From Marsupella aquatica (taxonomy: Eukaryota > Plantae > Marchantiophyta), in the NCBI GenBank assembly GCA_973895155.1, contig OZ316896.1:11980830-12044829 (forward strand): a stretch of 64,000 nucleotides of DNA, in the 5' to 3' direction. This document shows positions 11,606 through 59,189 of the stretch, in pieces. The notes beneath the pieces were generated by a model. That model ran no database searches. It was not told the DNA's origin and saw only the letters and a list, made by a program, of their open reading frames with translations. How positions within the stretch are numbered: the stretch's first letter is position 1; each line of letters starts with the position of its first letter. Position numbers and translations under genes: made by a program.

Positions 11606-13046
11606 TTTGGGGGGGTCAAGGTATGGTCACACAATGCTATTGGGAGTAGAACATTTTCTCCCTCCTTTACCATTTCTTCACTCCTTTGCCACCATTGTAC
11701 AATTGGTCGGAGCGCCCGGAAAATTACTTGGGACGTCCTTCTCAAAAACGAAGTGTCCTTGCAAAGATAGCCGGTCAGTGTGAATTTTGGGCATAAAGTG
11801 AAGCGACACGTGTCACAGTCCATGGGGATGTTCAAAACAAACCCCTCAGTCCATCCGGGCTTAACTTTCCCAAATTGGTCTATCTGAGTACCAAGGTCAA
11901 CTGTTATGGTCCACAGAGCTTCAAGGTTTCAAGGCATTCTCATTGTATATTGTTGCGGGAAATTTAAAGGTGTGCAATTGCAGCTATAAGCTCATATGAA
12001 ATTCTTGTGCCAAATGGTTTTCTTGGATAGGGTTAGTAAGCATGATTGGATGGGATCTACAGAAACATGTATTTTGACTAAGATGGCATAGATCAGTTTA
12101 GAATAAAATTCTGTACTTTCATACAAAGAGGATTTCGGGATCCAATCCAAGCTCAATAGTTCCTACCAACATGAGTGCACACGAGACTAGCCAGAACAGC
12201 ATCTGGTGCAATAAACCAATGAGACTGGTGACAAAGCCTCACAATGAGCACAGTTCATATGATGATCCACATGGAATATGGGGGCTAAGTGTGAGATTTG
12301 AAAGAAACTGTAAGCATTGAGCAAAAGAGAAAAGCAGATTTTGGGCATGGGTCCAAAAGGGGAGACAAATTTAGTCAAAGGAGAATAAGGTAGAGAACAT
12401 GGGGTGGGGAGTGGAGAGAGGTGAATGATATTTTTACCATGTCAATGACAGTGGTCTGTTTTAGCACAGCATTCAATTTTTTTGGATATCAATGTTTGCC
12501 ATACTGGCGGAAAACCCAAATAACTTTAAAACTCACTGTAAATGTATGTTGGAGAGGGTGAGCTAATCTAAGTTGTGACCAACATAGAAAACATTTATAT
12601 TGTCCACAGCAATGTTTAAAAAGGTTTGGCAGACATCCTTAAAAAGACATCATGGATCAGTTTGTAATGAAATGTGAAAATTTTCATATAGTTTAGGGGA
12701 GCCAATGTGCAAATGAGTACTCCATCCTCAACCGCTTAGTAGTAGCAACCTACTAAGCTCTCCGTTGCTATGCTAGAGTGGGACATGTTGCTATGCTAGA
12801 GTGGGACATTGTCTATTAGATTTGCATTGTTAGAGGCATCATATATCTGCTAGATAAACTAGTGGTGCCTTACATACGATAATTGCAACAGCCTAATAAA
12901 TCCTAGCTTAAATTCAATGTGCCATGCTAGTGATGACTTGATTTAACATACCACATTTATTTAGCTCACTTTCCCATAAAAGTAAATAATTACTGAAAGT
13001 AGGTTAAGGAACTAGAATTGTTCTTTGATGTTGTTGTAAGTTGGCA

Positions 13047-13184
13047 TGTCGTGCGCATACACATCGCTACACAACATACATCGCTTGTCACACATATCCA
13101 AACATAGTCACAATCCACTAACACGCACATAAGAGAATGGAGTACAAATACAACCAATGTCCACACATGCCCAAAACCCACAAT
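13047..13184 (-). repeat. Terminal repeat Y, outer copy (~138 bp)
   Basis: Matches 13516-13653 with one visible mismatch (aaatacaacc/aaatagaacc). Confidence 0.92.
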
Positions 13185-13513
13185 AATCTTTTCTGGATGA
13201 AATCGAACAACAATCAGTGCTAATCCAACAACGATCCTGTTTGACTCGATCACACATATATGTCAAGCCCAACGCACCTTGTGCTTCAAGGAATCCACGT
13301 TACATGCACACAACCTGGTCAGCCACACCATAGCCACCAAGCTCATGCTCAAAGGCTCAACATTGAAAGATGAGGCCTTTGAGCCAACACAAGGGGATAA
13401 CTATCCCTCACACCAACTCAAACTAAACACAAAGTGCTCATATAGCACACATACAAAACCTCTATATCCTAGATAGTACGATATACTTTACTACCACTCT
13501 AAATGGTGTGACA
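13184..13513 (-). repeat. Terminal repeat X, 3' copy (~330 bp)
   Basis: Direct repeat of 22520-22849, about 6 mismatches by eye. Both copies yield the same 65-aa spurious ORF. Confidence 0.95.
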
Positions 13514-13515
13514 GC

Positions 13516-13653
13516 TGTCGTGCGCATACACATCGCTACACAACATACATCGCTTGTCACACATATCCAAACATAGTCACAATCCACTAACACGCACATA
13601 AGAGAATGGAGTACAAATAGAACCAATGTCCACACATGCCCAAAACCCACAAT
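13516..13653 (-). repeat. Terminal repeat Y, inner copy
   Basis: Direct repeat of 13047-13184. On the - strand it begins AT-TGTGGG immediately after the purine tract. Confidence 0.92.
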
Positions 13654-13663
13654 CGCCCCCCTA
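13654..13663 (-). other. Polypurine-tract-like sequence (TAGGGGGGCG)
   Basis: G-run directly upstream of the inner Y repeat in element orientation. Confidence 0.6.
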
Positions 13664-13826
13664 GCTGGGAGTGAGGTCCCCTAACTCTAGCTAGCCATGA
13701 GTTCTACAAAGTTAATATACACCTTTGTAGGTGCAAAGATCAAGAGACCGGGTGCAAGTGAGCCCCATCGATCGCCTACCTGCAATCTATATCTTCCACA
13801 AGAACACAAATGATAACTAGTTGGCA

Positions 13827-15254
13827 TCACCGACATTGAGGACAAAACCATGATCCGCTAGGAATCATGTGCAAGGGTGGTGTCAAACACGACATGTGCC
13901 ATCCTCTAGAACACCTATCACAAATCAACATAGTAGCTGCTTCCTGAGCAGACCCACACAACATACACTTCAAGCTAGCACGAACATGTGCCAAGCTTGG
14001 ATCCACAGTGCCATCAATGTTTGGAAGGTGACATGGCGCACAATTACGCACGTGATCCTTCCAAACCATACCATCGCGCCCTTCCAACATAAGGACTCCA
14101 GAAGGCAACACTTCACGCACACGCAAGATTGTCCGCCCTGCGGTCACATCAAGCGTTGTTGGTGCTGTCTGCTGCAAATAAACATAATCGCCAAGATGAA
14201 ATCTCCTAATCTTCGTGCGATAACCTCCTCCACGAATAGTAGCATATCGCAAAGTATCACGATGCTGGGCAATAGCAAGGTTGTCAAAGGCCATGGGCAT
14301 GACTCTCTCAAAAACTCGTGCCCTCTCTGAACAAACCTTTACCCAAATATCTGGATCATCCAAATCCACAACAGTTACAACATCACGACGAATAGCCGCT
14401 GGCAAATCTGGCTCTCTACCATAGAGCAAGAAATAGGGTGAGAAGGATGCAAGTGATGCTTGTCGACTGAAACGGTAGCCCATAGCTAACCAAGGTAGTT
14501 GGAGATCTCAGTCTCCCAAATGACCAACCTGTAAGCCATACTTGCACAATCCTCTCTTCACAGTTTGTACAACTCTCTCTGCCAATCCATCTGCCTCAGG
14601 ATGATTGCGAGAAGTAGTACGATGGTCAATCAGAGCTTGCTCACACAAACCCTTAAAATCTCCACGGAATTCCGTGCCCTGATCAGTCAACACCTCAGTT
14701 GGTGCTCCAAAGTGACTGAGTACTCGATCCAGAAATGTGGTAGCCACTCCTCCACTAGCTTTATCTGGCAATGCCACTAGTTCAATCCACTTGGAGAAGT
14801 GCTCCACCATAACCAAAACATAACTATTATATCGTTGGGTGAGAGGCAATGGACCAGCAAAGTCCAAACTCCATCTGTACCCCAAACCCATGATTGGCAA
14901 TGGATGCAACTGGGGAGTGGGAGCATTAAATGATGCCCTCACTCGATCACATACCACACACTTAGCTATCAGTTGCTGGACATGAGTGTGCATACCACGC
15001 CACCAATACTGTGTCTGCAACAAGCTATAAGTGTGCTTGACACCAAAGTGCCCTAACTCCTCGTGCGCATGTCGCACCAAATGTACTCGTTGTGATGGTT
15101 TTGGTACCACCAATACCTTACCATCACGTAGTACTCTCAAAAGATGGCTTCCTTCCCATCGAAACCTCTTGGCTCTCTGTAGAACCCTGTCACGTTCCTT
15201 GGCATCAATACTGCCAACAATAGAACCACTGCGCAGATATTCCAACACTTTCAC
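13827..15254 (-). pseudogene. Integrase (HHCC + DDE core) with C-terminal PHD finger; one in-frame stop at 14508-14510
   Basis: HEELGHFG..YWW..CVVC, WSLDF, LTDQGTEF, GLAERVVQT. The C-terminal CMLC..ICDRC..WHMSC..WFCPQC is a C4HC3 PHD. Confidence 0.92.
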
Positions 15255-15269
15255 ATCATTGTGAATATC

Positions 15270-16904
15270 TTATTGTCCAAAAGTTACCTCACCAACATCC
15301 ACATCTGAAGACTCATCATCTGCTTCATCCAATGAAGTAGAGTCCACAGAACCACTGCATGCTGGAACCCAACAAAGGAAGGCAGATGCATGCCATCCTG
15401 GCACCATCTCCTTATCTGACTCATCATGCCATCTGGCTCCAATCTCATCCTCCTGACTGGTACATGGATTGCGGCTCAACCCATCTGCATCCAAATTCAC
15501 CTTTCCAGGCCTATGCACCACCTGGAAATCATACTCCTGTAACAACAATGCCCATCGTGCAAGCTTCCTTGTAAGCTTGTCAGACTCCATTAACCACTTG
15601 AGAGGCTGATGATCAGTGATCAAAGTGAAAGGATTACCAAACAAGTAATAGCGGAAGTGTGCCACAGCCCACACTGCTGCCAAACACTCTCCCTCATAAG
15701 AGCTATACTTAGCCTCTGCTAAATTGTTTGATCTACTGGCATATGCCACAACAAACTCATGTCCTTCATCATCTTTCTGAGTCAGCACTGCTCCAAGTCC
15801 TACTCCACTCCAATCAATGTGTAGCTGAAATGGTCTCCCTGAAATGGGTCTTCTCAAAATAGGGGATGATGCCAATCTTTCTTTCAACTCCTGAAAGGCA
15901 TGCTCCTGATCATCACCCCAAATTCATTCCTGATCCAACTTAGTGAGTATGGTCAAAGGTTTAGCAAGCTGGCTAAATTCTTTAACATACCTCCTATAGT
16001 AGCTTGCCAATCCCAAGAATGCACGAACTCTGCTCACATCAGTAGGACGAGGAATCCGTGTAATGGCCTCCACTTTAGTCTGTTGTACACCCAATCCCCC
16101 TGGGTATATAGTGTGGCCCAAATACTCAATCTGTTCTTGGAAGAACTTACACTTGCCGGGATGGAGCTTCAATCCATGTTCCCTCAATCTCTCAAACACA
16201 ATCTGCAAGTGTCGTTGATGTTCTTCCACAGTAGAAGAATAAACCAAAATATCATCAATATAACATCTGACAAAATCCAAACCTGCAAGGATTCGATCCA
16301 TGACTCTCTGGAACTCAGTTGGTGCATTCTTCAACCCAAATGGTAAGAACAACCACTGATACAAACGATCCTTGCCATAAGAATCAATTCCCCAGAATGT
16401 TGTCTTGGACCTGTCAGAATGTCTGATTGGAAGCTGATGGTACCCTGCCCTCAGATCCAATGAACTAAAAACCTTTGCATGCCCCACTGCATCAAAGATC
16501 TCCTCAGGTGTGGGCATGGCATATCGATCAGATTTTGTCTGACGATTAATAGGTCGGTAATCACCACACATACGCCTATCCGTGTAATTACCATGCACAT
16601 CCTTCTTGGCTGGCATCACTGTGGCAGATGCATACTCCCCGTATGAGATCTCCACCAAACCAACCTCCAACAAATCCTGAGTTCTGCTCTGAATCAGAGC
16701 TCTTTCCATGTCACTATAACGATATGGTCTACGAAAGATTGGCGCATCACTAGCCAATTCAATCTGAATACCAGGGCCCTTCAATATCCCCAAATCCTTC
16801 ATGCTGAATGCAAAACAATTCCTGTAACTCTTCAAGAATCGATGCATGCGACGTCTCTCATCCCCAGTCAACTTAGGACCAATCTGTGGCTCCCAACTCT
16901 CCAC
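15270..16904 (-). pseudogene. Reverse transcriptase, connection and RNase H
   Basis: RMCGDYRPIN, SLDLRAGYHQ, LPFGLKNAP, YIDDILV, EYLGH, FLGLASYYRRY; RNase H HIDWS..GAVLTQ, YEGECLA, TDHQPL, ADGLSR. In-frame stop at 15924-15926. Confidence 0.95.
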
Positions 16905-17139
16905 CAGATCCCTAATATCTTTTTGTAGGGTAGAAGAGATAGCCGATGATTGCTATTTAGCAGTAGATTGAACAGTCCCTTCTTGCTCAACAATCTGTCC
17001 AGCCTTGGCCAATCCTGCCATAGGTCCATGGACTATCTGCTCGCCCCCAACTGTGGTCATCACTGTCTTAGTGGACCGCAAGCTCACTAATGGACGATCG
17101 GTAACACCAGCAGAGCGCATCCACAACTGTTCAGCTACT

Positions 17140-18090
17140 CCCAAGCTGATAATCCAAGTCAAGCAATTCAAATCCATGGCTTGACCAAGGACTTGGCGGC
17201 GAGAACTCTCTGACACTGAGGCAACTGCAGTAGTGCCTGTCAAAAATCCCATAGCACGCTCTCTTTCATCAACAATAGGCTCCACTAATTGCTGTAGCGT
17301 TGTATCCCATACAAGTCCAGGCCCACCTGCTCTAAATGCATATGATGCAGAATGGCTCACAAAGTGGGTAATGCACAACGCGGACGACCAACTACATTGA
17401 CCACTGCCAATGGAGATCTATCAGACTGGGTCACATGTTGTGCACAACGCCCTGGATCCAAAATATCATCCACCACCAAGGATGCTGAGCGAGGAATGCT
17501 ATCAAATGCTCGCTTCAACACTTCACAAGGTAACAAATTAGTCCACCACAAGCGTGGACGATGTGCACGAGAACCCACACGTGCAACATCCAATAATATA
17601 GCAGGTCCAATTCAAGATTTGACCTGATGAACACTAGCAACAAGTCGATGACGCTCATCACCCAATAGTGGCACATTCTCTAAAATGTAGGCAGGGGAAT
17701 GTATTTGGTGTAACTGGAGATGACGCAATACCCGTAACATCTCCCAAAACAATGCAGAGCGTGGATCATGAAGTCCATGTTCAACTCTAGCTCTTGATTG
17801 GCCTTGACATGGCCAACCAGCAATCACCAAATCAATGGGGCTAATGCGATCCAAATGATCCGCCCCCAGCAATGAAATATCAGCCGGCAATGCATGCTGA
17901 TAGCCACGAACAGCATCCACTGGCAACAACTGTGGATAATGGTCTACCAACATAGCCACATGGCGCAATGAGACTCTCCGTGTTGTCTCATCTGTCTCCA
18001 CATACAAGTATCGACGCACAAGAATTCCTGCCTGAAGAATAGCAGCCAATCCAGTGCTAATTCCACCAAATAGATCAAGCAAACAAATAC
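17140..18090 (-). pseudogene. C5 cytosine DNA methyltransferase domain (DNMT3-like) inside the retroelement polyprotein
   Basis: Motif I LLDLFGGIS, motif IV IDLVIAGWPCQ, motif VI YILENV, motif VIII AHRPRLWWTNL, ERERAMGF, motif X RRQVLGQAM. One stop (17612-17614) and one frameshift (~17365). Confidence 0.9.
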
Positions 18091-18502
18091 CCTCTGGTGG
18101 ATATTGCCACGCAATAGGGATGGTATCCAATGGTGAAAGAGTCACTGGCCCACTTGTAGGAGATTGCTCTGCTCCTGACTGTGGTGTAAAAGCATGACGC
18201 CATGCATCATGTACCAATTGTGCTGCCCTCTATGGCAAGGCTTGTGCAGTACCCCATACTGGTGGCATAACACTAGTTGGATTGGGATCATCCCAATCCA
18301 GGTTTCTCCTTTGCACCATCTGCTCCTCATGTGACTCCTCCACTGATGGAACATCTGCTGCATGTGCATTACCCTTCATCAAATCATCAGGATCAGTGAT
18401 CACACCACTGAAGGCTGCCAAAGACAATAGTGTGGGTTTAGGGCCTCCCACAGGTCCACTAAATCGCATTGGCAACCTGCTCAATCGAGCATCTCCTGAC
18501 TG

Positions 18503-20872
18503 TCAATCAGGTCTGTATGACACTGATTCATCCCAAAAATCAAGAATAAATCCCATGGGGTATAACACTGTATATCCCACCAACACATCATATGGCTCTG
18601 CCTTAGTCAAAATAGCTCGCGCCTGTATGTGGGAGCTATCCTTGGTATGACCCTCCTGAATCCTCAATTCAAGTGGTCGTCTGGTGATGTGCTGTGTGGG
18701 TGTAGGTCCCCCCAATGAAGTCTGAATAGGAAAGGGACACTCCTCCAGATCATCTGGACGCAATGCCAATCCTCGTACCGCAGACTTACCCAACATCAAG
18801 GGCTGAGCACCAGTATCCAGTAACACTCTCTCTGGCTGGTATATGGCTCCAGTAGGCCCAACTAATCGGAAGATACCACTCCGATTATCCAATGACACCA
18901 CGCTAGGTTTAAACCTAGTCCTCTCAAATGCAGGGCGTGCTGGCAAACCCATCAACTTTGCCGCTGCTGCATGCCATGTCTCGCTAGTAGCCGTAGGTGG
19001 CATGGTCTTCACAGCTTCAACACTGCAAGCTGCTTTTGCATGGGAAGCAACAACTGGAGTGTCCTCACAAAGTGTAGTTGCCAATCTGAACACTTCTGCA
19101 GGACCAACTCCCAAGTTCAGCATGTCTGTAGCTGAAAATAATGGGGTGCACACTATGGTAGTAGCCGCCCCCAGCAAGGTACCTGTCATCCCTGCTGCAT
19201 CACTACCTGATTCTGCCAACTTACCCATGCTAGGGTTTGTCCGAATCGGGTTCATAGAGGCAGTCTGAACTGTCTCTGACAATGTAAAAGACTGAGGAAG
19301 CTTTGTCTGACGACGTGCATCCCCCCTCTGTGGATCTAGGTCCACTACTGCTCCTCGGGGCTCAAGAGCTTTTGCTGCCCCATGCGTCAAAGCTGTTGAT
19401 GCATCAATGTGTCCAGTGCCACACATGAATCCCATAGTGGCAAGATCTCCATCAACCCCATAAGATGTGGAAGCTCCATAGGATGTAGAAGCCCCATCAC
19501 CAAAAGTAGGTCTCACCTGAGAACTAGCCATAGCAGCTAGTTGTTGCTCCAATTGAGCAATCTTAGTATCCTTAGGATCTATGGTCACAGCAGGAGCAGT
19601 ATCACCTCCTTGCCTCGCTACATGTGGCATACCTCGGCCACGACCACCACCTCTACCTCCTCTTCCCTGATCATGTGTGCGTTGTCCCCCTCTCCGTAAC
19701 TCAGGATGGAGTGAAAAATACCTATCCTTGGTGTGTCTAGGAGCTCCATAATGATCACATTGCCGCTGATCAGGTGCTGAGGCCCCTCCTGACCCTCTAT
19801 GATCAGGGCAATACCGTTGCGCATGATCCCACCACAGGTCCAACACCCTGACTGCTGTCCAGCATAGCAAGACACAAGTCTCTGACTGGTAGATTCCCGT
19901 GTAGTGGGCTTCTCCCTCTGACTCTTACGTGCAGTAGGCTGTGATCTGGGTGTAGATGCAGCCTTTGGTGCTTCCTTGGCAAACCCGGAAGTCACCACTT
20001 TCTCATTCACCATATTGAGCTCAATACGCTCTGAAAGTGTAAAAACAACTGCCAATGTGGGATCTGCATCCCTAAGTAGAGTGACATCTCTTACTCTGCG
20101 TCGCAATTCTCTATCTAGAATTGCATACCAAAATTGGACTGCTTGAGCCTCTATCACTCCCTTGGTGACAGTGATCAATCTGCGCATACGAGTGTATGCC
20201 TCACGTAGACTCTCTCCAGTCTTGCGCTGAAACTCCTGGAGACCCTTCAACTTATCAGTCCTCACACCCTGATAGTTTTGCTTTAATACTTCAAAGAACT
20301 CCACCACAGGGTTAAATGTTGGCGTAACTCCAACCCCTGTCACAATCGCACCGGTAGGAATAGCGGTGGATGTTGTTGGAGTGGTATTGGTAGATGGTGT
20401 GCCACTCTGGCTAGTGCTGCTAGAAGAAGCAACAGCTGTAGCAATGGGTTGGGCAATTAACCGCTCTAGTGCCATAGGTGATGGACACATAATTAGGCGA
20501 CCAATACTGCCTCCATGCCTCAATCTCAACCAAATGAGTCTTCCAAAACTCATGGTAGTCATCCATGGGTGGCCCCTCCAAATGCTGAAATAATCCCTTC
20601 CATGCCATGAAAGGGGTAAACAACGTGGCATTACGTAATGACTGCATATCGCACCACGTATCAAACTCCTGGATGAAGTCATCCAGATCAATCGTGCCAA
20701 CTGCACCAGAGTATCGTCGTGGGCCCTTTGTAGCCCCGTACATCTCCTCCATATCCCACAACAAAGGTGCAATCACCTGATGACAAGGAGAACTGCTCAC
20801 AGAGTCCTTGTCAAAATCACTATCTGAAGCTGCACTTGCAACTGCTATCAATGTTGTTGGCCGAAATGACAC
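18503..20872 (-). pseudogene. Gag (capsid-like region and CCHC knuckles) plus aspartic protease; two frameshifts
   Basis: FQRKTGESLREAYTRM, CWTCGG, degenerate QCDHY..RH..DRY knuckle; protease VLLDTGAQ...YDVLVG...LDFW. Confidence 0.85.
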
Positions 20873-21498
20873 CCCACTTCGAGTGAAATCGGTCTTCTAT
20901 CCCTCGGACAGTTTCGTAGCACCCAAAGAATCCGTGATGACAAATCTGCCCTAAATCATCACCATCACCTTCATAATAGGCTTCACAATGCCCCAAGGTT
21001 GTAGCTCAAAATCCATGCAAAATTATTCCAATCTATGCATCTAGATGGATTCAGAAGTATCAAAAACCTTTACGTAGCTTCTGATTTGGCCCAAAACAGG
21101 TCTCTAGACAAACTAATAAGTGTATAAAGCCCCCTAACCCTTTAACTTAGACAACAAGTTATGAAAGCTTGTGTGTACACTGCATGCCATAAGAACTCCA
21201 TGGTTAAGCACGCGTAAGAGGAATAGCTTTGGGATGGGTGACCTCCCCCCTTGGAGTTATGCACCAACTTAGGCACTCCAAACCAACCAATTGTCAACTA
21301 CTCCTCACGTACCAACAAGCTACCTTGCGGCCTGCTCCGGTCTGGCTCCTGTTCCGTCCTCACGCCCCTCGTCACGAGTCGCCTTGAAACGTCGAGATGA
21401 GCCTAAGGGAGCCCTTCACACCCGCCACACTTCGCTACGTCGGGGTGAACCTCCAATTCAAATCCATTCAATAGTCATCCGAACGCCCGGTCCACAAG

Positions 21499-21938
21499 TT
21501 GGAGTGGGATGATCCCAGTCCAAGTCCTTCACATCCTCTACACAGGTGAAGTCGCCAAGATACAGTTGGATTGGGTTGATCCTAATCCAAATCCACTTCA
21601 AGGTCCAGATGAGGTCTCTGGACACGCCAACATACAATTGGATTGGGACGATCCCAATCCAAATTCAACTTTGCCCAAAATCAAGTCTCCAACGTTGTCA
21701 ATGGATTGTTGGATTGGGATGATCCCAGTCCAACTTCAACTTCAAGTCCAAATGGGGTCCGAAGTTACCAATGTATAGTTGGATTGGGATGATCCTAGTC
21801 CAAATCCAACTTCGAGTCAAAATGCGGTCTCAAGAGACAACCCACAATTGGACTCGGATGATCCCAATCCAAATCCAACTGAGTCAAAATGAGGTCTCAA
21901 GAGACAACCCACAATTGGACTCGGATGATCCAGTCCAA
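21499..21938. repeat. Seven ~70-bp units with a conserved 25-bp palindromic core TTGGATTGGGAT-G-ATCCCAATCCAA
   Basis: Cores start at 21499, 21566, 21638, 21709, 21779, 21848 and 21915. Confidence 0.9.
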
Positions 21939-22519
21939 AACAAGGTGCGCCACAAAACACGCCGCAATTCTCGTACCAAAACATTGTTCAACAATATTGT
22001 CATTTTCCTTGTGCCCTAGGTCGCCGCCGCACCTCGTCGCAACGCGGACTCCATCGTGACGCCGACAACGCAATTCACCAACATTTGATTGTCACTTTCT
22101 TCGTAAAAGTATACTATCCATCAACGAATCTCAAATCCGCAATAGCCTTTGTGATGCTGCAACGCAATCGATAAGGACTAGAACTCCAAAAACACAATGT
22201 AGCAACTACCACTTGAGGCGCCTTCTGATCTTCGATCAGTCCCTCATTGCCATAGCTTCGAGAAGCTCCAAATGTCAATCCGGTAATCAACTCCAGAGAG
22301 AACTTCAATGAACAAACTATCAGAGAGCTTCAAACAGCACCACGCTGTACTCTCAGAGCAATCAATAGCTCACAATCTCCAATCTACCAACGGCTGATCT
22401 GACTTGAGCTACCACAAGTCAACCAGCAAGATCTCAACAATCCAAGCTACCATGGATCAACTCTGCAATACAGCAAGCTTTGAAACAGCTTCGAATCAAC
22501 CTGGAGTGATCTTTCAATG

Positions 22520-22849
22520 TAATCTTTTCTGGATAAAATCGAACAACGATCAGTGCTAATCCAACAACGATCCCGTCGGACTCGATCACACATATATGTC
22601 AAGCCCAACGCACCTTGTGCTTCAAAGAATCCACGTTACATGCACACAACCTGGTCAGCCACACCATAGCCACCAAGCTCATGCTCAAAGGCTCAACATT
22701 GAAAGATGAGGCCTTTGAGCCAACACAAGGGGATAACTATCCCTCACACCAACTCAAACTAAACACAAAGTGCTCATATAGCACACATACAAAACCTCTA
22801 TATCCTAGATAGTACGATATACTTTACTACCACTCTAAATGGTGTGACA
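22520..22849 (-). repeat. Terminal repeat X, 5' copy
   Basis: Direct repeat of 13184-13513. Including 22518-22519 it is bounded by TG...CA. Confidence 0.95.
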
Positions 22850-22866
22850 TGCAACATTGAGGGTAG

Positions 22867-23039
22867 ATGTAAAGTAGAGTTGAATGTTGTAATTTTATTG
22901 TCACAATGTAAACCCCAAAAGATGTAGAGCTCAAAGGAAAGACAAAAGCCATGTAAAGTAGAGCTGAATGTTGTAATTTTATTGTTAAGATTGATGTAAA
23001 CCCCAAAAGGTGTAGAGCGCAAAGGAAAGACAAAAGCCA
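22867..23039. repeat. Two ~85-bp direct repeats next to the retroelement
   Basis: atgtaaagtagag.tgaatgttgtaattttattgt...aaaggaaagacaaaagcca occurs twice. Confidence 0.75.
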
Positions 23040-27875: not shown

Positions 27876-28396
27876 TGTGCAAGACATAGGTCTCAAGTTC
27901 AGGCAAGGACGGGGTGTGTGGGTGGATCGATTCAATCTCGTTTGAGCCGAGTGGCTCTCAAATGGGCGGGTGGTGCGAAATGATTGGGTTACACATTGAG
28001 GGGATTTGGATCGTGTCATTGATTCGAATTTAACGGGTCACAGGGTTTCTCGGGAGGCGGGAGGGCGTCTTGAGGATGGATGAGAGTGAAGGGTGGAGGT
28101 CAATTTGATCTGCTGTGCTGCGAGCCGGTGCTGGATGGGGTGGAGTAGGATCTGGATGACCCTTCCCTGGATGGGATGTTGTGATGGATAAAAAGGAATG
28201 CGTTTTGGCTAAGGAGGAGGAGGTGATTGACTAGGATGCCTTTGTGATCGAGGAGTGAGGAAGAAGAAGAGGAGACGGTCTCGGGAACGGAGCGCTGAGC
28301 AAGGAGTCTAGGGTGTAGGCAGGACAATGGTTGATTGAGATGGCGAGCGAGTGCAGAGGTGCTTCATGAGGGGAGAAGGAGACTAATGTCAAGACA

Positions 28397-33984
<5,588 letters not shown>

Positions 33985-36804: not shown

Positions 36805-36982
36805 CGAAATCCAGAGCTTCGCAGCTCGAAATCCTCGCGCGCTGCTCCTCGATTCTCTTCAGCGTTTTGGGTTTCCCGCATCAGCTAAGCTTCGCAACAG
36901 CTGCTCGCGCGGTCTCTCTCTACACTACTGATTTCTTCTTGTTACTGAGAAATTTGCGAGATCAGCTGATGGAACATATCCG

Positions 36983-37330
36983 TGTGAAAGGAAGAGCACC
37001 TTTGAGAGTGCGGCTTGGAATGAATGGAACCATATCCGTGTGAAAGGAAGAGCACCTTTGAGAGTGCGGCTTGGAATGAATACTAGGGACACCAGAGATG
37101 GTGGAAAAGAATTATGGCCAGTAGGGTAACCCATGGCCCCAAGAGGGTTGTGAGATGTGAAAGGAAGAGCACCTTTGAGAGTGGGGCTTGGAATGAATAC
37201 TAGGGACACTAGAGATGGTGAAAAAGAATTATAGGGAGTAGAGTAGCCCATGGCCCCAAGAGACACCAGAGATGGTGGAAAATAATTCTAGGGAGTAGAG
37301 TAACCCATGGCCCCAAGAGACACTAGAAGA
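36983..37330. repeat. Tandem repeat array 1 (unit up to ~115 bp, gtgaaaggaagagcacctttgagagtg...)
   Basis: Three to four partial or complete units; same unit as 39055-40005. Confidence 0.85.
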
Positions 37331-37339
37331 AACCTGACG

Positions 37340-37476
37340 ATTCTGAGACCCTGCCTTAAGTGACTCCATTGAGACCTTCCAAAATTTGTGACTCCTAGGT
37401 TGTTGGGCCATTCTGAGACCTTGCCTTAAGTGACTCCATTGAGACCTTCCAAAATTTGTGACTCCTAAGTTGTTGG
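37340..37476. repeat. Tandem duplication of ~70 bp
   Basis: attctgagacc.tgccttaagtgactccattgagaccttccaaaatttgtgactccta.gttgttgg occurs twice. Confidence 0.85.
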
Positions 37477-39054
37477 TGTCATTTTAGTTACAAGTGTTGG
37501 ACTGAGTTTTGGAGAATTCTTGGGAAGTCATTTCTATAACTATTGTGGAAGTTACAACTATAACTAAGTTTAGCCAACAAGAATGAAGTTTGTTAAGTCA
37601 CTCACATACCATTTGGGATATATCATCATTTTCTTAGTTTACCTGGATATTCTACTCGTGAGGTATGCCTTTAAAAGAGTAAGATAAAGGGGAACATTGG
37701 GAAGAGACCGACAGGCCACATGGGGGAGCGGTAGTGAGAAAGGAGGGGTGGAGCTTGATGGTCACCAAATATTCAAACAGGGTCGCCTTGCTTGATTCGC
37801 AAACTTTCACTTAGGACGTAGATTAAAGCATTAGATTGCGAGCTTCAATCGCTATGGAAAAGTAGGTTTTTGCTGCGTGGCCGAGGAGGTTTAACCCAGG
37901 TAAATGGTAGACTCAACCTTGGGTTGTAACACTCCCCCTTGGTTGTACCGCGGATACATGTTATGGTGCAACCAACAAGTCTACCATATATGTGGAGTGT
38001 AATTGTTGTATCTTTAAGATATGGCCTAATGAAAAGGAGAAGAAATTGGGGGGGGGGGGGATGTAACCTCATTAAAACCTCCCCTACTTTCTTTTGGGAG
38101 TATAGAGTGTTACCATCCCTCCGATTCTATAGTATAATGTAATTGGTTTGTGAGGTAAAGTTTAGTAGACTATGTGGTCTTTAGGCTCTTTTGAGGTGAA
38201 GTGTAAACGTAAGTAGACTGTGTAAACTAAGGTAAGTGGTGTATGGGTCCGCAAAGCTATTCGGCCAAGTTGTTGTAAAGCTAGTCGTAGTGGATGGGTG
38301 ATGGGCGTAGTCGGAAAGAGTCGATCCCCCTGCTCATTGCCGTCCCTTGCTTTTGCTCGTGGTTGACTCGCTGTCTCCGGTGCTCCGTGTCTCTGTCTGT
38401 GGAGAAGAAAGGTCGGCAGTGAGGCTCGTCCTTCGTTTGTGAGGAAGAAGAGGGGAAATGTTAAGGGCTATGGATTGGGGCAGCGACGCGCGGGCTGCAT
38501 TATCGGAATTCTGCATTATCGGAATTCGAGTTGAGGAGTAGCGTTCTTGATGGTAAGATCTAGCCTATAGCCCTGTATATTCCTTTCTTGAATCGTCTGT
38601 GTTTGTGCATCTCCTTTATTGCCTTCGGTCTGTTTTAGTGAATGTAAATATGGTGTCTTAATTTTCTGTGCTGCGATCTATTCCAATGCGCTGCTGGGTC
38701 CGGTTTCCAACTAGCTTCGTGAGAAGCGCCATTGTAGTCCTTTGGATGCAGTCTACACAGTATGTCTTCATAGTTCTGCTGTCGTTCATCTTTCGCCCGA
38801 TTGAGTTGATTGTAAGATTGCTGTCGATTCGAATAAATGAAATACGGAAATTATTTATGCAATCTGCCTGGCGTACAGGCGAATTGTTAGACTTGTCGTC
38901 AGACTTGGCCTTGCAAGATTAGCTTTGTAGTCCGGTTGTGCTTGCTTCTAGTTATTCCTCTGTGCACTTGGTCTTCCATGCCAAGATTGAATCTATTTTC
39001 CGATGAGCTCTATAATCCCTTCAACAGTTGAGTGGTGTGAGGGCGTGCGAAGAG

Positions 39055-40005
39055 TTATGGGATGTGAAAGGAAGAGCACCTTTGAGAGTGGGGCTTGGAA
39101 TGAATTCTAGGGACACCCATGGCCCCACGAGGATTATAGGATGTGAAAGGAGGAGCACCTTTGAGAGTGGGACTTGGAATATATACTAGGGACACAGAGA
39201 TTGTGGAAAATAATTATAGGGAGTAAGGTAACCCATGGCCCCAAGAGAGTTATAGGATGTGAAAGGAAGAGCACCTTCGAGAGTGGGACTTGGAATGAAT
39301 TTTAGGGACACCTATGGCCCCAAGAGGGTTATAGGATGTGAAAGGAAGAGCACCTTCGAGAGTGGGACTTGGAATGAATTCTAGAGACACCAGAGATGGT
39401 GGAATATAATTCTAGGGAGTAGGGTAACCCATGGCCCCAAGAGGGTTATAGGATGTGAAGGAAGAGCACCTTCGAGAGTGGGACTTGGAATGAATTCTAA
39501 GGACACCAGAGATGGTACCAAAAATTCTAGGGAGTAGAGTAACCCATGGCCCCAAGAGGAGAGGGTTATAGGATGTGAAAGGAAGAGCGCCTTTGAGAGA
39601 GGGACTTGGAATGAATTCTAGGGACACCCATGGCCCCAAGAGGGTTAGAGGATGTGAAAAGAAGATCACCTTTGAGAGTGGGGCTTGGAATGAATACTAG
39701 GGACACCAGAGATGGTGGAAAATAATTCTAGGGAGTAAAGTAACCCATGGCCCCAAGAGGGTTATAGGATGTGAAAGGAAGAGTACCTTTGAGAGTGTGG
39801 CTTGGAATGAATACTAGGGATACCAGAGATGGTGGAAAATAATTATAGGGAGTAGGGTAAACCATGGCCCTAAGAGGGTAATGGGATGTGAAAGAAGAGC
39901 ACCTTTGAGAGTGGGGCTTGGAATGAATACTAGGGACACCACAGATGGTGGAATTAATTATAGGGAGTAGAGTAACCCATGGTCCCAAGAGGGTTATAGG
40001 ATGTA
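39055..40005. repeat. Tandem repeat array 2 (long ~115-bp and short ~80-bp variants)
   Basis: About 9 units of ggatgtgaaaggaagagcacc...ggaatgaat.ctagggacacc...ccatggccccaagagggttata. Confidence 0.92.
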
Positions 40006-48209: not shown

Positions 48210-50739
48210 TACTTGATGTTTCTCTTCCTGTACAGAAGTGTTTCAGCCCTCAAAACTTGAGACATGGCGCTCTTCTCTCCATTGATGCCAAGATAGTCAT
48301 TATCGTGGCATATGCAACTCTCTCCGCGAGCTACCTTGCAAACCTTGCATCCTTCTAGCAATGGTTGTTGACCATGGGCTGTGACTTGTTCTGATTTCAA
48401 GCTCGACGTCAAACGGGAGACTAGGTAGTTGCATCTGTCATGCGTTCGCTCCAAAAACTCCATGAACTTGTCATCCAATTGCCTGCGCAAATGTTGGCGA
48501 GAAATTGATTTCCAATCCATCGCTTTCCAATCCATTGATTTCACACGACAATGTCGAGATTGTTCACACTCTTAAGAATTGGTGGCTACATACGTTTCCT
48601 GGTCTTGACTTTGATAATAATTATTGCCCATCTACTAAACACATTTGTGGGAATCTGACAACCTCCCTCACCTTCGGCTCACATTTTCTTTTGGGCGAAG
48701 GTCTTCTTTGCTCCGATGCGATGATTAACGTTCAAACATGAATCTTGGGCTAGTAAAATGATGTGATTGTTCTCAAGAGCCGATGATTGGACTACAATGT
48801 TTGACAAGATCTCCCGTTGGACCACTAAAACCATCATCGATCATTATGAAGTATAAGTTTTAGTTGAAACAACAACCTTCCTTTGTATTCATTTTTTTTC
48901 CGTGCGATAAGGTGTTTGGATCATACTGGTCTATAAATCACTGTGTCAAGAGGAAAAACGAAACTTCGAACTTTGGCATCTTGGAGACAAGATGCCAAAG
49001 TGGGGAGACCCAATGGAATGGAGAAACAATGGAAAAACCCTGAATACCAAAGAGCCAAATTAGTTGGTGTACCTCCCACTAGTGTTACTTTCATACTTGT
49101 AAGGATAGCACACATGTTTTTCTCTATTGGTTATTTTCACCGCAAAGCTAGTGTTTACATCAAAATGCTATTAACATTCAAAATTATTTGGAGGTTTGTC
49201 AAGCACCCTGGAATATTTTGTCAATCACGTCCCAAATTTTAATATTTAAGCCAGGAGAGCACTAGAGGAGTAACTTTTGTTGGCCATTTTTTAATTGGCT
49301 AAATTGTTCCAGAATAGTCCCTTTTCCAACTCCTGGCTAAATGACACAAAGAATATCTAGGGAACAAATATTTAGCAAAACTTGCAAGATCTTTGAAGAT
49401 TTAGTGACTATCCTTCAGATAAGGAAAGATCTAAGGCTATCCCTAATGTGTATGAGATAGAATGTTCCTTGAAGATTCTTGCCAATCTCTACCAACACTT
49501 GTTTTTGAGAGATGCACGTAGTGGTGAATGAATTTTTTGGTTGTGGCTTCAAACATGAAATATGACTTCAATCTAACAAGACTACTATGCCTTACACTCG
49601 ATTTGAATATTCCGTATGTGAGATGGAATGTTCCTTGAACGTTCTCTCCATACCCTACCAACACTAGCTTTTGAACTCAAATAGAAGCACGGGACTTTGT
49701 GTTCGAGGAAGACAGTGGCACAAAGTATTTTTGTTGAGTAAGATCATTTACACTGACAGACACTGGCCAGGACAGTCCAAATAACCATGACCGAATCCCA
49801 AGCAGCATATTTTTTAAGGGTTTTCTGTTTTTAGCCAGTGTGGCCAATGTCAGCCGGTCTAATGGAGTAGATGCTAGGAATATTCTTTGTCAATTTTCCT
49901 AAATTATTACCTGACCATCAGATATCTCTAGATTCGCGGATGACCATTAGATTCTGGCGAATGGGGACCATGATTTGGTGGGAAAGTGGCGACTGGCATA
50001 CAAAGACTCTAGGGAATGTTAGCCAAAAGTGGCAAACACTTTTGGGGGAGGTGGAATCTGGCAAATTTTTGCACCTAAAAAATATGCTGATCCCAAGCCA
50101 TCTTTCATATGGTGGGCTGAGACAAGGTTTGCCAGGAAGGTTATACTTTTGCTGGAGCTTCAACATTTTCACAAGTAGACACACAGGGCTGCTGCTCCAA
50201 AGCCTTAGAAAGCCAGCACAATGAAAGTTGTTCTCAATAAAAGTAATTTGAGCTAATAGCTATGGGTGAGCGAAGCCAAAGCACACATCCAAAAAATTCC
50301 AAAGTAAACTCGCTTTCCGTGCGACCTAGAAAGCAGTGAAGTTTGTCTAAGACAAGAAGATGTAGGTACTATATCTTTTCGTACTTAGTGTAGGCATTCA
50401 TTTTCTTGTATTATATACTCCTACACTCACCGTCTGGTGTTAATACTATATTTTCCCTATCACTTCCCATACCACATCAAGGGATTTCTAGAACCACTTT
50501 GGAATCAACTTTGATTTCTACTTCAGTTTCTTCAGCTTTGAAACACGGTTCTCGTGCATGCTCTCGGGCATCCAATGTATGATGGGGAAAGTCAGTATGG
50601 CCGCTGACTCGGGATAGTGCTTCGATTTCCGTGGCTTTAAAGACTCATTTTCACTCGACTGAAAGTCAACTGCAAGCCGGTACCAGACTTGCAGTCGAGC
50701 AATGTACCCAGACTTTTTGCAACACAATTAGAACTCAAC

Positions 50740-52700
50740 TAGCATATAAGCTCGCAGCTCAACCAAGAGCTCTTGGTTTGCAATCTTTTGAAAAAGATAT
50801 GAGCAGAAAGGGATGGGCATGACAGAGGTCATTCTATCTGTAGGTAACTACATGGACGCCCAGTGCCTAAGAAAAGAACAGCAAACGAATGCCTCACAAC
50901 GCATCATCTTCAGCCGCAATATTGGCAAAAATCAAGACCCGGCATGAAGTATCAGATAGAGGTTCAAACTGGCGCACCTTTGAGGAAAATGGTTGCTAAA
51001 TATTAATGCCATCAATGGTATAGAACAAGCTGTTCGAGGTCAACACCTCAGGTCGACCAATGTCCTTAAATGCAGGCTTAGGTCCCAGGCCCCTTACAGC
51101 TTTGCTATTGCCCTAGACAAATGCTAGACTCTGGGAGCGGGCCACTGGGGGCTGTGCCACCATGGCTCAGAGGCGGGGATATTTCCCGCAGCAGGTCGCC
51201 AAGGGATAAACCTTGAACGAACCCCTGGGCAAGGAAACTGACTCTCAGCAAAATGCACGAAGCTACAGACGCAGAAAAGCCTTGTATTGGGATTTCATCC
51301 ACATTGCAATTTAAATAATTGTATTTGGTTTTACATCAGATCTCATCCAGCAGGCGGTTGAAAGAATCTGATAAGAGTATTCAGCAGATGAACAAGAGAC
51401 ACCACGGATTGCCTCTTGTTAGAAGTTGATCGTCCTGAGCTTCTCCGAACTGCCTCGTTGGGTATCTCTCATGTGCAATTCCGCTGGAGCCTTGGTCACA
51501 GAACTCGAGCTGACACCTGTAACTCAGAACCCCGTCCCTTCCAAGAACCGATGGTACTGCCATCTCCCCATCCATCTTCCTGACTGCCAGCGGACGAGTT
51601 CTTGTCGGGAGTCTTCCTTCCATATTGCAGACGGGTATCACGCGTAGATGGTTACCACACATGGATAGTCATCTCCAAACCATCATTGTCACCACCCACA
51701 GGATAACCGATAACGGGTGTACACATCAACAGGCAGGTAAGACTTCCGGGGTACAAAGGGGGTCCTGGGAGAGGTGTGCCACCTCTCGCCTCCTTGAAAC
51801 CCTGTCGTTCTTCGTCAATATGCTTCACGATTTCAAACTTTTCAAAATGGTCACTCTTGCACTTAACCCACTTTGTGCGAACGTAGGGGTCCTCGGCGCT
51901 ACTCAAATGTTTCATATGATGTCCATCACCAGAGTACAAAACAAGGAAGCAAGTTTGAAGATAGAAATGCGAGAACGGGTTACACAACATTATGCCCAGG
52001 TGAGTTATCTCCAGGTCCCCATTCGACACATCCAGGTGCCTCAAAAGTTTCCCCTTCGCCATGCCTTCTGCTGAAGCGTGAGTAAGTACCTTAATATGAA
52101 AGCCTGGAAACCGAGCCACTTCAGAGAGAATCTGTTGTATGCCAACAAGTGCGCTGACAAATGAAAAATGAATTCACAACCAAATCATCCATGAATGCAA
52201 CTGCATATCTCACGTGTCCATATTGTGGTACAATAAACACAGAGCACGGCGTCCACGGAAGTTGCAGTTCGAGTGTCAAGCACTCACTCTAATATTGGTA
52301 CGATTTTTTGATTGTCAGAGCCTCTCAGCTGACAAACCATTATCAATTCAAGGATCTTCTAAAGTGAGCGCTACCCCATCAAGAATCTCTAGAGATACCC
52401 ACTGAACCAGAACATGGGTAGACCTGAACCACTTTCCGTGTAGTGACCGTTGTTATGGAGGCCCTTTTCCTAACTATGACTAAAACTAAACCACTTGCTA
52501 TTGATAGGCAGAGGAAGCCTTCAATCTAGATCTTCAGAAAGAGAGATTTCCCTGACCCTACCTACCTTTGGCAGAGAGGAAACGTCACGCTTGGCCCAAA
52601 AGAAAGACAGTGTAACACCAACAGTGTCACACTCCTGTGCAGCACAGTCGTGGAAACGCGAGAAGGGTGGGCCGGCGAACACTGTGACACAGTGTACATC
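50740..52700 (-). pseudogene. Inverted partial duplicate of the katanin gene (part of intron 1, exon 2, part of intron 2)
   Basis: HLSSAEDPYVRTKWVKCKSDHFEKFEIVKHIDEERQGFKEA matches exon 2 at 29731. Flanking intron sequence matches ~28940-31490. It is frameshifted and lacks the AAA exons. Confidence 0.88.
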
Positions 52701-52731: not shown

Positions 52732-53604
52732 TCAACTACGTTCTCTCCTAGATCTATGCTTGCTGCCGTTTCTTCCACTTCCTCGTCTTGGAGGACTCTC
52801 TCTTCTACTGTGCGACGGCTTCCGGCGTTTGCTCCTCTTGCGGTCGCCACTAGACTCTGAGTCGGACTCAGTTTCAGAATCGGACCCGGTGTCAGACTCA
52901 GTTGCAGATTCTGACCTGGTCTCCGAGTCCGATTCGGTTTCAGAACCCGATGAAGCAGACGACGACGCCGAGGAGGCACTAGAACGAGAACCTTTAGAGC
53001 TACTACTACTCGCCTCGCTTGCTGTGGAGGAGGACAGATCACTCTCTTCGCTTCCTCCGCTATCAACGTCACTGCTCTCACTCGAAGACCGCCTTCTTTT
53101 GCGATTCTTTGACACTGATTTCCTCGACGGTTCCTCCTTGGGGACCTCCTGATCGTTGGCAACTTGATTTGCTGGTGAAGTTTCTTCTAGCGAATCCATA
53201 AGCTTGGGTCTTAATTTTGGATTCAACAGCTGCTGAGTACGAGACGGGCGAGATATGTAGACTCTGTCGTTTTTGCACTCGAAGGTCCAGTGCCCTAACT
53301 GGAAGCACTTTTGACACTGCTTCGAGAGGTCTGCCCCACCTGGCGATCGCGGGTCCTTCCTAACTCCCAATTGCACCGCTTTTTCTGTGCTCATAAGGTA
53401 CATCTGACGCTTCGCCTCCTTCCTCTCCTGCCATCTGCTCGGGCCCTCTTCTTTCTGCCCATACGCATTCACATTCCTCGCCGCCGCAGCGGCTGCCCGC
53501 TCCGCTTGCGCTCTACTTAAACCTTTCGCTGCATTCAGCGCAGCTGCCTTGATTCGGTCAGCTGCAGCCGCCGCAGCATCTGCATTCTCCTTCTTCGTCG
53601 ACAT
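52732..53604 (-). CDS. CCHC zinc-knuckle protein (ZCCHC10-like) with Ser/Arg-rich tail, intronless
   Basis: [48 protein letters not shown], then low-complexity S/E/R. Confidence 0.9.
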
Positions 53605-53844
53605 ACTTGAAACCTGCAGCCCTAGCTAGAACCTCCAACTGGGCAACACGACCTCTCTCTTTCTCTCTCCAGTCTCGTTCTCACCATGAAATCAACGCCA
53701 CGAACATCAATTCGATCAGCCCGTCACTACTTCTTTCTCTCGTAGCCCAAGCCTGTCATCGCAATCGTAGTCGCCCCGACAAAAGACCTTCCGAGCATGC
53801 GTCAACGCTCCCACAGAACTCCCGTAGCGGAGGATACCCTAAAA

Positions 53845-54405
53845 CGAAAATAAAGTCGTGCTTCCTTTGACAAGAGCGCGTGCTCACCGAGATACCCGAC
53901 AACGAAGTAAAGTCGTGCTTGCTTCCTTCGACAATAAATCTTGCCGACCGAGATACCCGAAAAACGAACCAAAGTCGTGCTTGCTTCCTTGGACAATACG
54001 CCTCGCCGACCGAGAGCCCGAAAACCAAACGAAACGAAGTCGTGGATCTTTCGACACAAGAGCTTGCTCAGTGAGGTCCGAACCCGCAAACGAAACACAA
54101 ACTCCTGCTCTCTTCCTGCGACAAGAGAGCCTGTTCAGCCGGGTCAGTACCCTAGAACGAAAATCAAAGCCGTGCTCGCTTCCTTCGATGAGACAGCTCG
54201 CCTAGGACGACACAGCATCCGAAAACGAACCGAAGTCTTGGTTCAATACTTCAATGGTTCCGCACGAGAGCTCGCTCACCCACACGCGACACAGAAATCG
54301 AAAAAGCAACGAAACGAAGTATCGCGACACAGTACTCGAACCGAAAACGAAACGAAGTGTCGCGACACAGTACTCGAAAACGAAACGAAACGAAACGAAG
54401 TCGAG
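53845..54405. repeat. Degenerate ~60-bp repeats (aaagtcgtgcttgcttccttcgacaa) and (cgaaa)n upstream of the zinc-knuckle gene
   Basis: About 6 diverged copies, plus a duplicated gtcgcgacacagtactcgaa-like segment. Confidence 0.65.
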
Positions 54406-54599
54406 CTTCCTCGGGCAACACAGCATGAGAAGCAAAACCCACATGAGCTAAGAAGCTCGTGCAGAGGACGGGAGGAGAGGAGAGGAGAGGAGAGGAAATT
54501 GAGGAGCAGAGGAGCAGAGCGAGGCAGCGAGCCGTCGAGGAACAACGAGACACAGCAAGCGTGAAAACTACGCTTCAGTACAGACGACAGAAGCAAGGC

Positions 54600-55560
54600 T
54601 GCACTTACAAGGGTATCGCACTACATCGTAAGTGCAATCCTATGCACTTATCTGGGATTGGAATGCATTGTAAGTGCAATCCTATGCAGTTATCTGGGAT
54701 TGGACTGCATCGTAAGTGCAATACTATGTAGTTACATGGGGATTGGAATGCATCGTAAGTGCAAGCCTATGCGCTTTATCTGGATTGGAATGCATCTTAA
54801 GTGCAATCCTATGCACTTATCTGGGATTGGAATGCATTGTAAGTGCAATCCTATGCAGTTATCTGGGATTGGACTGCATCGTAAGTGCAATACTATGTAG
54901 TTACATGGGGATTGGACTGCATCGTAAGTGCAAGCCTATGCACTTTATCTGGATTGGAATGCATCTTAAGTGCAATCCTATGTAGTTACATGGGGATTGG
55001 AATGCATCGTAAGTGCAAGCCTATGCACTTACCTGGGATTGGACTGCATCATAAGTGCAATCCTATGCAGTTACATGGGGATTGGAATGCATTGTAAGTG
55101 CAATCCTATGCAGTTATCTGGGATTGGACTGCATCTTAAGTGCAATACTATGTAGTTACATGGGGATTGGAATGCATCGTAAGTGCAAGCCTATGCACTT
55201 ACCTGGGATTGGACTGCATCATAAGTGCAATCCTATGCAGTTACATGGGGATTGGAATGCATTGTAAGTGCAATCCTATGCACTTACCTGGGATTGGACT
55301 GCATCATAAGTGCAATCCTATGCAGTTACATGGAGATTGGGATGCATCGTAAGTGCAATCTTACGCACTTACTTGGGTATTGCACTACATCATAAGTGCA
55401 ATGTTATGCACTTAATGGGGATTGCAAAATATCGTAAGTGCAATTATATGCACTTACACAACATCCAAGCTGCACTTACATAAGTATTGCACTACACCAT
55501 AAGTGCAACCTTATGCACTTGACTGGGGATTGCACTGCATTGTACAATCCTATGCACTTA
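54600..55560. repeat. 42-43-bp minisatellite (gcatcgtaagtgcaatcctatgcacttatctgggattggaat)
   Basis: About 20 units decaying at both ends, with an internal inverted repeat TAAGTGCA-N6-TGCACTTA. Confidence 0.95.
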
Positions 55561-58930: not shown

Positions 58931-59189
58931 GAACCGATGACTTCTTTGCCGATGGATGAGGCACCATATGTACCTGTGATTTTTGTGCCGCAGGGTTTGG
59001 AGAACATACTAGAACGGTCTGTTTGTTTCCCGCCTCTGAACGATCACCGGACTTCCGGACTGGTGCCTTCGATACTCGATCAGGGGGTTTCGAGATAGGC
59101 TTCTGTAAAACATTAAGAATAAAAATAAGTTTATAATGCGAATGGTCGCGTGACTACAAAGAGAGACACTGAAATGAAGTGTATTACCT

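Follow-up and report, generated by a model that had tools for sequence, protein, structure and literature searches.

A Ty3/gypsy retrotransposon family with split long terminal repeats whose insertions begin and end at an internal palindrome

Results

A split-repeat element in Marsupella aquatica

The window analysed here, a 64-kb stretch of contig OZ316896.1 from the liverwort Marsupella aquatica, contains on its minus strand a 9,803-bp element (13047-22849), a defective member of a Ty3/gypsy family, the insertions of which have both ends at a palindrome inside the long terminal repeat (LTR). Read along the element strand, the order is X1-internal-PPT-Y1-GC-X2-Y2, in which X and Y are direct repeats and PPT is the polypurine tract (Table 1); mapping of the repeats bore out this layout, which had been proposed in an initial annotation of the same DNA. 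The X copies differ at 6 of 330 positions and the Y copies at 1 of 137, in both cases with no indels. The outer termini, TGTCAC... at the 5′ end and ...CACGACA at the 3′ end, face each other across GC inside the internal palindrome; the junction there reads TGTGACA-GC-TGTCGTG (13507-13522), again as annotated, and its central 10-mer GACAGCTGTC (13510-13519) occurs only once within the window. The flanks of this copy, GGCA and TGCA, agree at three of four bases, in line with the imperfect 4-bp target-site duplication (TSD) suggested at the outset; the CATG that had been pointed out across both junctions is incidental and is absent from the flanks of relatives.

Pfam matches follow one another along the element as C5 DNA methyltransferase, reverse transcriptase (RT), RNase H, integrase zinc finger, integrase core and PHD finger. 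The Ty3/gypsy order of gag, protease, RT, RNase H and integrase is present, with gag and protease placed by similarity to proteins P0069 and P0065 and weakly supported by Pfam. Four in-frame stops between 16955 and 14510, together with frame changes, disrupt the copy. No Pfam match to a tyrosine recombinase was found in the 26 reading frames of the element, and none to a chromodomain after the integrase, where the PHD finger stands instead. The annotation had correctly described a DDE integrase and no tyrosine recombinase, but had overlooked the methyltransferase and the PHD finger. The nearest named proteins come from liverworts and mosses, namely Calypogeia fissa (for RT), Marchantia polymorpha and Sphagnum.

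Table 1 Features of the element, in window coordinates; sequences are given on the element strand where so marked.
Feature	Position	Strand	Evidence and remarks
TSD copy, element 3′ side (GGCA on the plus strand)	13043..13046	.	3/4 match to 22850-22853; TSD of the family is 4 bp
Y2, second Y copy, 137 bp; makes the element 3′ end	13047..13183	-	Repeat comparison; unrelated flanks adjoin in 9-21 contigs per listed row, runs X1-X3
X2, second X copy, 330 bp; its end meets the Y2 start at 13184/13183 (predicted cDNA-end join)	13184..13513	-	Joint at the ends defined by primer-binding site and PPT
Palindrome GACA-GC-TGTC, 2-nt spacer 13514-13515; predicted integrase cleavage (att) site, uncut copy	13510..13519	.	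Spacer in 34/34 relatives; also three distant relatives
Y1, first Y copy; begins immediately 3′ of the PPT	13516..13652	-	Repeat comparison
Polypurine tract AGGGGGGCGA (element strand)	13653..13662	-	G-run adjoins Y1 in 30 long relatives listed
PHD finger, integrase C-terminus	13833..13967	-	PF00628 E 1.4e-11
DDE integrase, H2C2 zinc-binding and core domains	14598..15098	-	PF17921 E 7.8e-16, PF00665 E 8.8e-15; motifs SLDFAG, LTDQG, GLAERVV
RNase H	15531..15920	-	PF17917 E 1.3e-36
Reverse transcriptase core	16107..16583	-	PF00078 E 5.2e-35; 83% identity to Calypogeia fissa protein
Dnmt3-like C5 DNA methyltransferase in Pol, between protease and RT	17360..18088	-	PF00145 E 2.3e-11; best PDB matches are DNMT3A chains; tblastn with P0017
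gag and protease region, interrupted by stops and frame changes	18503..20752	-	tblastn with Marchantia P0069, 50-82% identity; weak Retrotrans_gag (P0069), weak Asp_protease_2 (P0065)
Array of ~70-nt repeats, 5′ untranslated region, each with an imperfect ~25-26-nt palindrome	21498..21940	.	Repeat families D11, D12, D14
Self-priming primer-binding site CATTGAAAGAT, 11 nt	22509..22519	-	Exact complement within X
Predicted self-primer ATCTTTCAATG, likely first 11 nt of the RNA; second copy 13361-13371	22697..22707	-	Complementarity and predicted RNA fold
X1, first X copy; makes the element 5′ end (TGTCAC...)	22520..22849	-	Unrelated flanks adjoin 22849-22851 in 2-5 contigs per run, among rows listed
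TSD copy, element 5′ side (TGCA on the plus strand)	22850..22853	.	Compared with 13043-13046

Independent insertions share the split layout

Relatives were collected with a query alignment that combined two window fragments and 21 related Pol proteins; the best 80 of 483 confirmed matches on metagenome contigs and six loci from genome contigs made up a set of 86. X or Y was found in place at 68 of these, the remaining 18 being left out for short contigs or membership of a distant family, and the merging of ten duplicates gave 58 distinct insertions, which fall into at least four LTR sequence families with common ends. Thirty of the 58 end in Y-X-Y, 23 in a single Y, four read Y-X, and one shows the 5′ X only; the full X...Y-X-Y arrangement is visible in eight relatives. 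Not one of the 58 has two ordinary complete flanking LTRs, and the layout is shared by independent insertions, a check that the initial annotation had proposed. The four Y-X readings comprise two collapsed assemblies, one contig end and one unusual locus (L060, see below). The two collapsed cases, L001 and L081, read Y-X followed by the primer-binding site (PBS) and the internal region, with a 127-nt terminal overlap in L081; they were treated as collapsed and given no weight as evidence of circles.

The same ends recur in the window's own organism, in contigs of four runs from two studies. Unrelated flanks adjoin the Y end in 9-21 contigs per row listed for runs X1-X3 (agreement 0.40-0.44) and the X start in 2-5 contigs per run among the rows listed, and the sequence preceding the X end is Y rather than random flank (agreement 0.94-1.0, among the rows listed). 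One contig of run X3, which may be the source of the window itself, crosses each outer junction with 0 differences, with only 27 and 28 letters inside the element against a bar of 31.

We also placed the elements on an RT tree of 42 rows, which are search hits and include no named Tf1, Tcn1 or Chlamyvir sequence; L085 is labelled on it by kinship to L084 alone. All elements of this kind fall into one 33-row group with Haematococcus proteins, at an SH-like approximate likelihood ratio test (SH-aLRT) support of 93, below the starred level, and more distant relatives lie near Haematococcus proteins as well. Among viral contigs, 34 pattern matches included no relative.

Several individual relatives deserve mention. 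L085 (2-6460) holds an open frame of 2,152 codons from gag to the PHD finger with no methyltransferase match, and its sister L084 has both the palindrome and a self-primer pair; the idea that the methyltransferase is required for the layout is weakened by this pair, the 3′ end of L085 lying off its contig. L073 (168-11583), a very long relative in two frames (2,189 and 1,674 codons), extends far beyond the PHD finger, and the stretch inserted between its RNase H and integrase has a weak match to the methyltransferase. The two Y copies of L082 (2311-2884) are 100% identical and its joint lacks filler, which marks it as a very young copy and a candidate active family. L081-L086 are eukaryotic-type retrotransposon contigs in prokaryote genome bins and are likely contamination.

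Target-site duplication and the palindrome spacer

The TSD was tallied over 17 insertions with both ends, nine of them long (including the window copy) and eight short; L052 was left out, and the ends of L043, L071 and L080 were assigned by hand, the automatic calls being wrong there and at L075. A perfect 4-bp TSD is found in 11 of the 17 and one with a single mismatch in a further four (chance 5e-22). No insertion has a perfect TSD of 5 or 6 bp, and one has a perfect 3-bp TSD, at a poly-T site. Taken with the lack of ordinary LTR pairs, these counts leave no trace in the family of the conventional Y+X LTRs with a 5-bp TSD that the annotation had named as the outcome that would overturn its proposal.

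The spacer at the Y1|X2 junction is 2 nt long in 34 of 34 relatives (GC in 13, AC in 10, GT in 6, AT in 4 and AA in 1), so that 33 of the 34 carry GC or its C>T/G>A decay forms, the pattern that might be expected from decay of a methylated CAGCTG. This spacer is missing from integrated ends, which read TG..CA. Spacer loss, TG..CA ends and a 4-bp TSD would together be the expected scar of an enzyme that cuts each strand after CA, with a stagger, and then carries out DDE strand transfer. In three distant relatives (L073, L083 and L084; 44-46% protein identity), perfect palindromes of 16-20 bp with the same core are found 52-57 nt after a G-run, their full layout lying beyond the contigs.

Self-priming and the joint between X and Y

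The absence of a tRNA PBS after X, reported in the initial annotation, held up; the X end that it implied did not, as X stops 2 nt earlier and the CA there belongs to a self-priming site. The 11 nt that follow X1, CATTGAAAGAT, are the exact complement of 22707-22697 within X1, which was equalled in 0 of 200 shuffles, and an RNA predicted to start at 22707 folds with its 5′ end on the PBS (z -2.6). Despite differing sequences, complementarity between self-primer and PBS is kept in five LTR families (the window, families A and B, L001/L081 and L084), and the self-primer of families A and B lies ~30 nt after a TATA-like box. Among 18 copies, the match is better than at least 92% of shuffles in 14. 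In Tf1 the RNA's first 11 bases pair with the PBS (PMC7175516). It is likely that a Tf1-type self-priming site takes the place of the tRNA site in the window family, with RNA predicted to start at the self-primer.

A self-priming PBS and a PPT fix the ends of the cDNA, such that its right end is the X end and its left end is the Y start after the PPT. The conserved CA is missing from both, and X2|Y2 is the point at which they are joined. In our reading of the alignments, joint length departs from an exact join in 12 of 26 copies of families A and B, through losses of 1-3 nt, two extra PBS bases (L033), PPT remnants (L007, L026), filler DNA (L026) or deletion of most of X (L035). Palindrome length is altered in none of 34 (Fisher p 7e-6 against the joint), and the background in Y1/Y2 pairs is 12 indels per 4,054 aligned nt. 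In 24 of 27 copies, Y2 resembles the Y1 of that copy more than it does the family mean. The X|Y joint is probably remade rather than inherited.

Short copies

The 23 insertions that end in a single Y make up the short form. Five of them (L003 4733-13372, L034 59-6641, L044 536-9666, L050 2245-11436 and L068 4172-13190) are complete as X-internal-Y, with TG..CA ends, a perfect 4-bp TSD and no terminal repeat; five of the eight short insertions in the TSD tally are perfect. Short and long copies are intermixed on a DNA tree built from 27 long and 22 short rows (49 in all; duplicates, L033, L045, L052 and L075 left out), with 14 changes against 16.2 when shuffled and 82 of 500 shuffles as low, as would be expected if short copies arose repeatedly from long parents.

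Discussion

Proposed integration route

Linear cDNA is the accepted integration substrate of retroviruses and LTR retrotransposons, and LTR circles are usually seen as dead ends. The family described here is a real Ty3/gypsy variant whose integration route probably departs from the textbook one. As the more probable explanation of its genomic scars, we propose that an ordinary cDNA (LTR = Y+GC+X) is closed into a 2-LTR circle and that the integrase opens the palindrome of the 5′ LTR, inserting X-internal-Y-GC-X-Y. RNA would begin inside X1, its first 11-12 nt pairing with the PBS to prime the minus strand as in Tf1. Ordinary LTR reverse transcription would then yield linear Y-GC-X-internal-Y-GC-X, with ends that lack the CA needed by the integrase, and a somewhat sloppy joining of the two ends, by host end joining or an end-to-end jump of RT, would produce the X|Y joint. 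The integrase would then cut both strands of the 5′-LTR palindrome GACA-GC-TGTC after CA, in a staggered fashion, to leave two CA-3′OH ends with 2-nt overhangs, like processed retroviral ends, and strand transfer would give X-internal-Y-GC-X-Y with a 4-bp TSD; with X kept at both sides, this form could be copied again. Short X-internal-Y copies would be dead ends, formed when both palindromes are cut, when a 1-LTR circle is opened, or by later recombination between Y1 and Y2. The initial annotation had offered either a family that integrates from a circular intermediate or a 2-LTR circle opened at an internal site; the family-wide layout, which matches a 2-LTR circle opened at CA-GC-TG, suggests that the two are one answer, with the circle itself a matter of inference.

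We lean slightly towards a broader statement, in which an old clade of PHD-finger Ty3/gypsy elements, extending from green algae to liverworts and mosses, would have an obligatory 2-LTR circle, an integrase site shifted into the LTR, host end joining, and opening by the integrase at one chosen palindrome in the manner of a restriction enzyme.

Alternatives and points of doubt

The proposal must be read cautiously, and several observations count against it. We infer circle and cleavage from scars in genomic sequence. A 2-LTR circle has two identical palindromes, so that a mirror product, X-Y-X-internal-Y, is expected; it is seen at 0 of 18 visible 5′ ends against nine long forms (p ~0.002 at 1:1), and the model must assume a preference for the 5′ site for which it offers no reason. 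The imbalance could reflect a bias towards that site, or a quicker decay of mirror copies into the short form by way of their longer X repeats; otherwise, one of the alternatives below is right. L043 and L014 have no TSD, and in 4 of the 18 copies compared (L003, L030, L031 and L052) the self-primer is no better than shuffles. The A/T-rich X end of family B may be intrinsically prone to indels, and at most loci the reference for the X end was the family rather than the copy itself. Short-read metagenome assemblies, the source of most relatives, can collapse near-identical repeats, as in L001 and L081. Finally, L060 (4553-5305) has unrelated sequence after X2 and then an oppositely oriented Y with a PPT, a layout that we leave unassigned.

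The missing mirror form would be accounted for if the joint were templated rather than newly made. Under such a scheme, which follows the replication model of Ngaro elements and their PAT-like kin, RNA running from X1 into Y2 would carry the joint, cDNA ends would be rebuilt on Y1-GC-X2, the integrase would cut the new junction only, and the joint would be inherited. This would also explain a layout identical to that of PAT and Ngaro (PMC7192593). Templating does not, however, require the repeats to be bounded by a self-priming PBS and a PPT, as they are in every family examined, and the joint is the least stable spot of the element (12/26 altered, against 0/34 for the palindrome) and carries PPT and PBS remnants; we regard this scheme as unlikely. 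An equally small probability attaches to a route with no free closed circle, in which the integrase would act on linear or branched cDNA, giving the short form when both palindromes are cut and the long form after a right-to-left jump of RT between the ends, the branched intermediate being cut before ligation. Short forms are indeed common (23/58) and have the same 4-bp TSD (5/8 perfect), and a branched intermediate would render the two palindromes unequal; the filler DNA and large deletion at the joints of L026 and L035, however, seem to resemble host end joining more. No sequence test in our analysis separates this route from the 2-LTR circle that we prefer.

Two further explanations are very improbable. 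An ordinary LTR element could have been rearranged after insertion, by cDNA recombination with an existing copy or by tandem or nested insertion, or could have been misassembled, and the 3/4 TSD of the window copy and junction contigs below the 31-letter bar would be compatible with this; the same ends and 4-bp TSD recur, however, in independent insertions of several unrelated LTR families, with 0/58 ordinary two-LTR copies, which refutes it for the family. A DIRS-type element might instead supply a tyrosine recombinase in trans to integrate the circle, the layout being that of tyrosine-recombinase elements (legend in PMC5890265; PMC7192593). Such an enzyme is absent from the 26 frames, and spacer loss, TG..CA ends and duplication of four unrelated bases are marks of DDE chemistry; at DIRS junctions, by contrast, element and target have a trinucleotide in common (PMC7192593). 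We give this explanation, too, almost no credence.

Comparison with known systems

TOC1 is grouped with PAT and Ngaro among the tyrosine-recombinase retroelements; bacterial insertion sequences of the IS3/IS30 type form a circle that a DDE enzyme opens where the two ends abut across a short spacer, although these are DNA transposons that, unlike the window element, involve no reverse transcription. PAT and Ngaro (PMC7192593) share with the window element split direct repeats of the form A...B-A-B, in which the circle junction is present as an internal copy, but encode a tyrosine recombinase where the window element has a DDE integrase, a PPT, a 4-bp TSD and loss of the 2-nt spacer.

Among the closest known systems is the Klebsormidium nitens element KnitGypsy-Dnmt3 (de Mendoza et al. 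2018, PMC5890265), for which the legend of Fig. 4c gives DIRS-like A-coding-B-A-B repeats with Gypsy domains. Like the window element, it combines the Gypsy domain set, a Dnmt3-like methyltransferase in Pol and DIRS-like split repeats, and these two features, the split layout and the Pol methyltransferase, are therefore already in print, the layout in that one legend. The text parts of that account contain no ends, palindrome, TSD, priming mode or mechanism. In full-text searches, which exclude subscription journals and Repbase Reports, neither palindrome, TSD, self-priming, short form nor mechanism was found described. No K. nitens protein was among the 64 and 35 hits of two word-based homology searches, a weak blank.

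Tf1/sushi and Tcn1 (PMC7175516, PMC6317226) likewise have an 11-nt self-primer against the PBS in place of a tRNA and the Ty3 domain order, but possess two ordinary LTRs and, in Tcn1, a chromodomain, in contrast to the split LTRs, PHD finger and usual DNA methyltransferase of the window family. A PHD finger is also carried by the Gypsy element REM1 of Chlamydomonas. In vitro, foamy-virus integrase cuts each strand of a palindromic LTR-LTR junction behind the CA, which produces 5′ overhangs of 2 nt (Delelis et al. 2005, PMC1180852), a reaction like the step proposed here. The foamy-virus palindrome, however, results from the joining of LTR ends and the provirus is ordinary (PMC1180852), whereas in the window family the palindrome lies inside each LTR, none is found at the ends, and every complete copy observed is permuted. 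The initial annotation had also suggested a comparison with Troyka, an atypical LTR retrotransposon that similarly has a DDE integrase (Kojima 2025, PMC12440569), and this lead fails: Troyka has CG..CG ends, a 3-bp TSD and two ordinary LTRs and is confined to metazoans (PMC12440569), so that termini, TSD length, LTR layout and host group all rule out membership for the window family, with its TG..CA ends, 4-bp TSD and bryophyte relatives.

If the broader statement on an old PHD-finger clade is correct, this would be the first lineage of LTR retroelements obliged to integrate from a circle with a DDE enzyme. The scars point to a family unable to use its own cDNA ends, which would offer a natural system for testing integration from circles, a minority view argued for foamy virus (PMC1180852), as well as an integrase that cleaves a short internal site. 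Standard LTR finders would be blind to such elements. Structure-based detection needs two flanking LTRs, as the REXdb survey indicates (PMC6317226), and split-LTR elements are consequently missed or given wrong boundaries, the short form having no terminal repeat at all. The results would also account for the odd repeat layout in the 2018 KnitGypsy-Dnmt3 legend and extend methyltransferase-carrying Gypsy elements to bryophytes.

Other features of the window

The palindromes in the 5′ untranslated array of the element (repeat family D12) number six, spaced ~70 nt apart, and a seventh lies at 18276-18301 inside pol, between protease and methyltransferase; no array comparable to 21498-21940 was found in self-comparisons of full-length relatives. 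Just beyond the 5′ end of the element, the flank contains an 84-nt tandem duplication (89%) at 22867-23039. Elsewhere, 29123-32351 and 50620-52516 form an inverted duplication of 73-93% identity, which overlaps frames that match a katanin MIT domain at 28370-30376. The region 52732-61557 may be another transposon; it combines a zinc-knuckle frame with a 42/85-nt tandem array (54569-55700) and with frames that resemble NIF phosphatase (two) and Ulp1 protease (one). The stretch 36971-39992 holds two blocks of 79/117-nt direct repeats (D2, D4-D6) ~1.9 kb apart.

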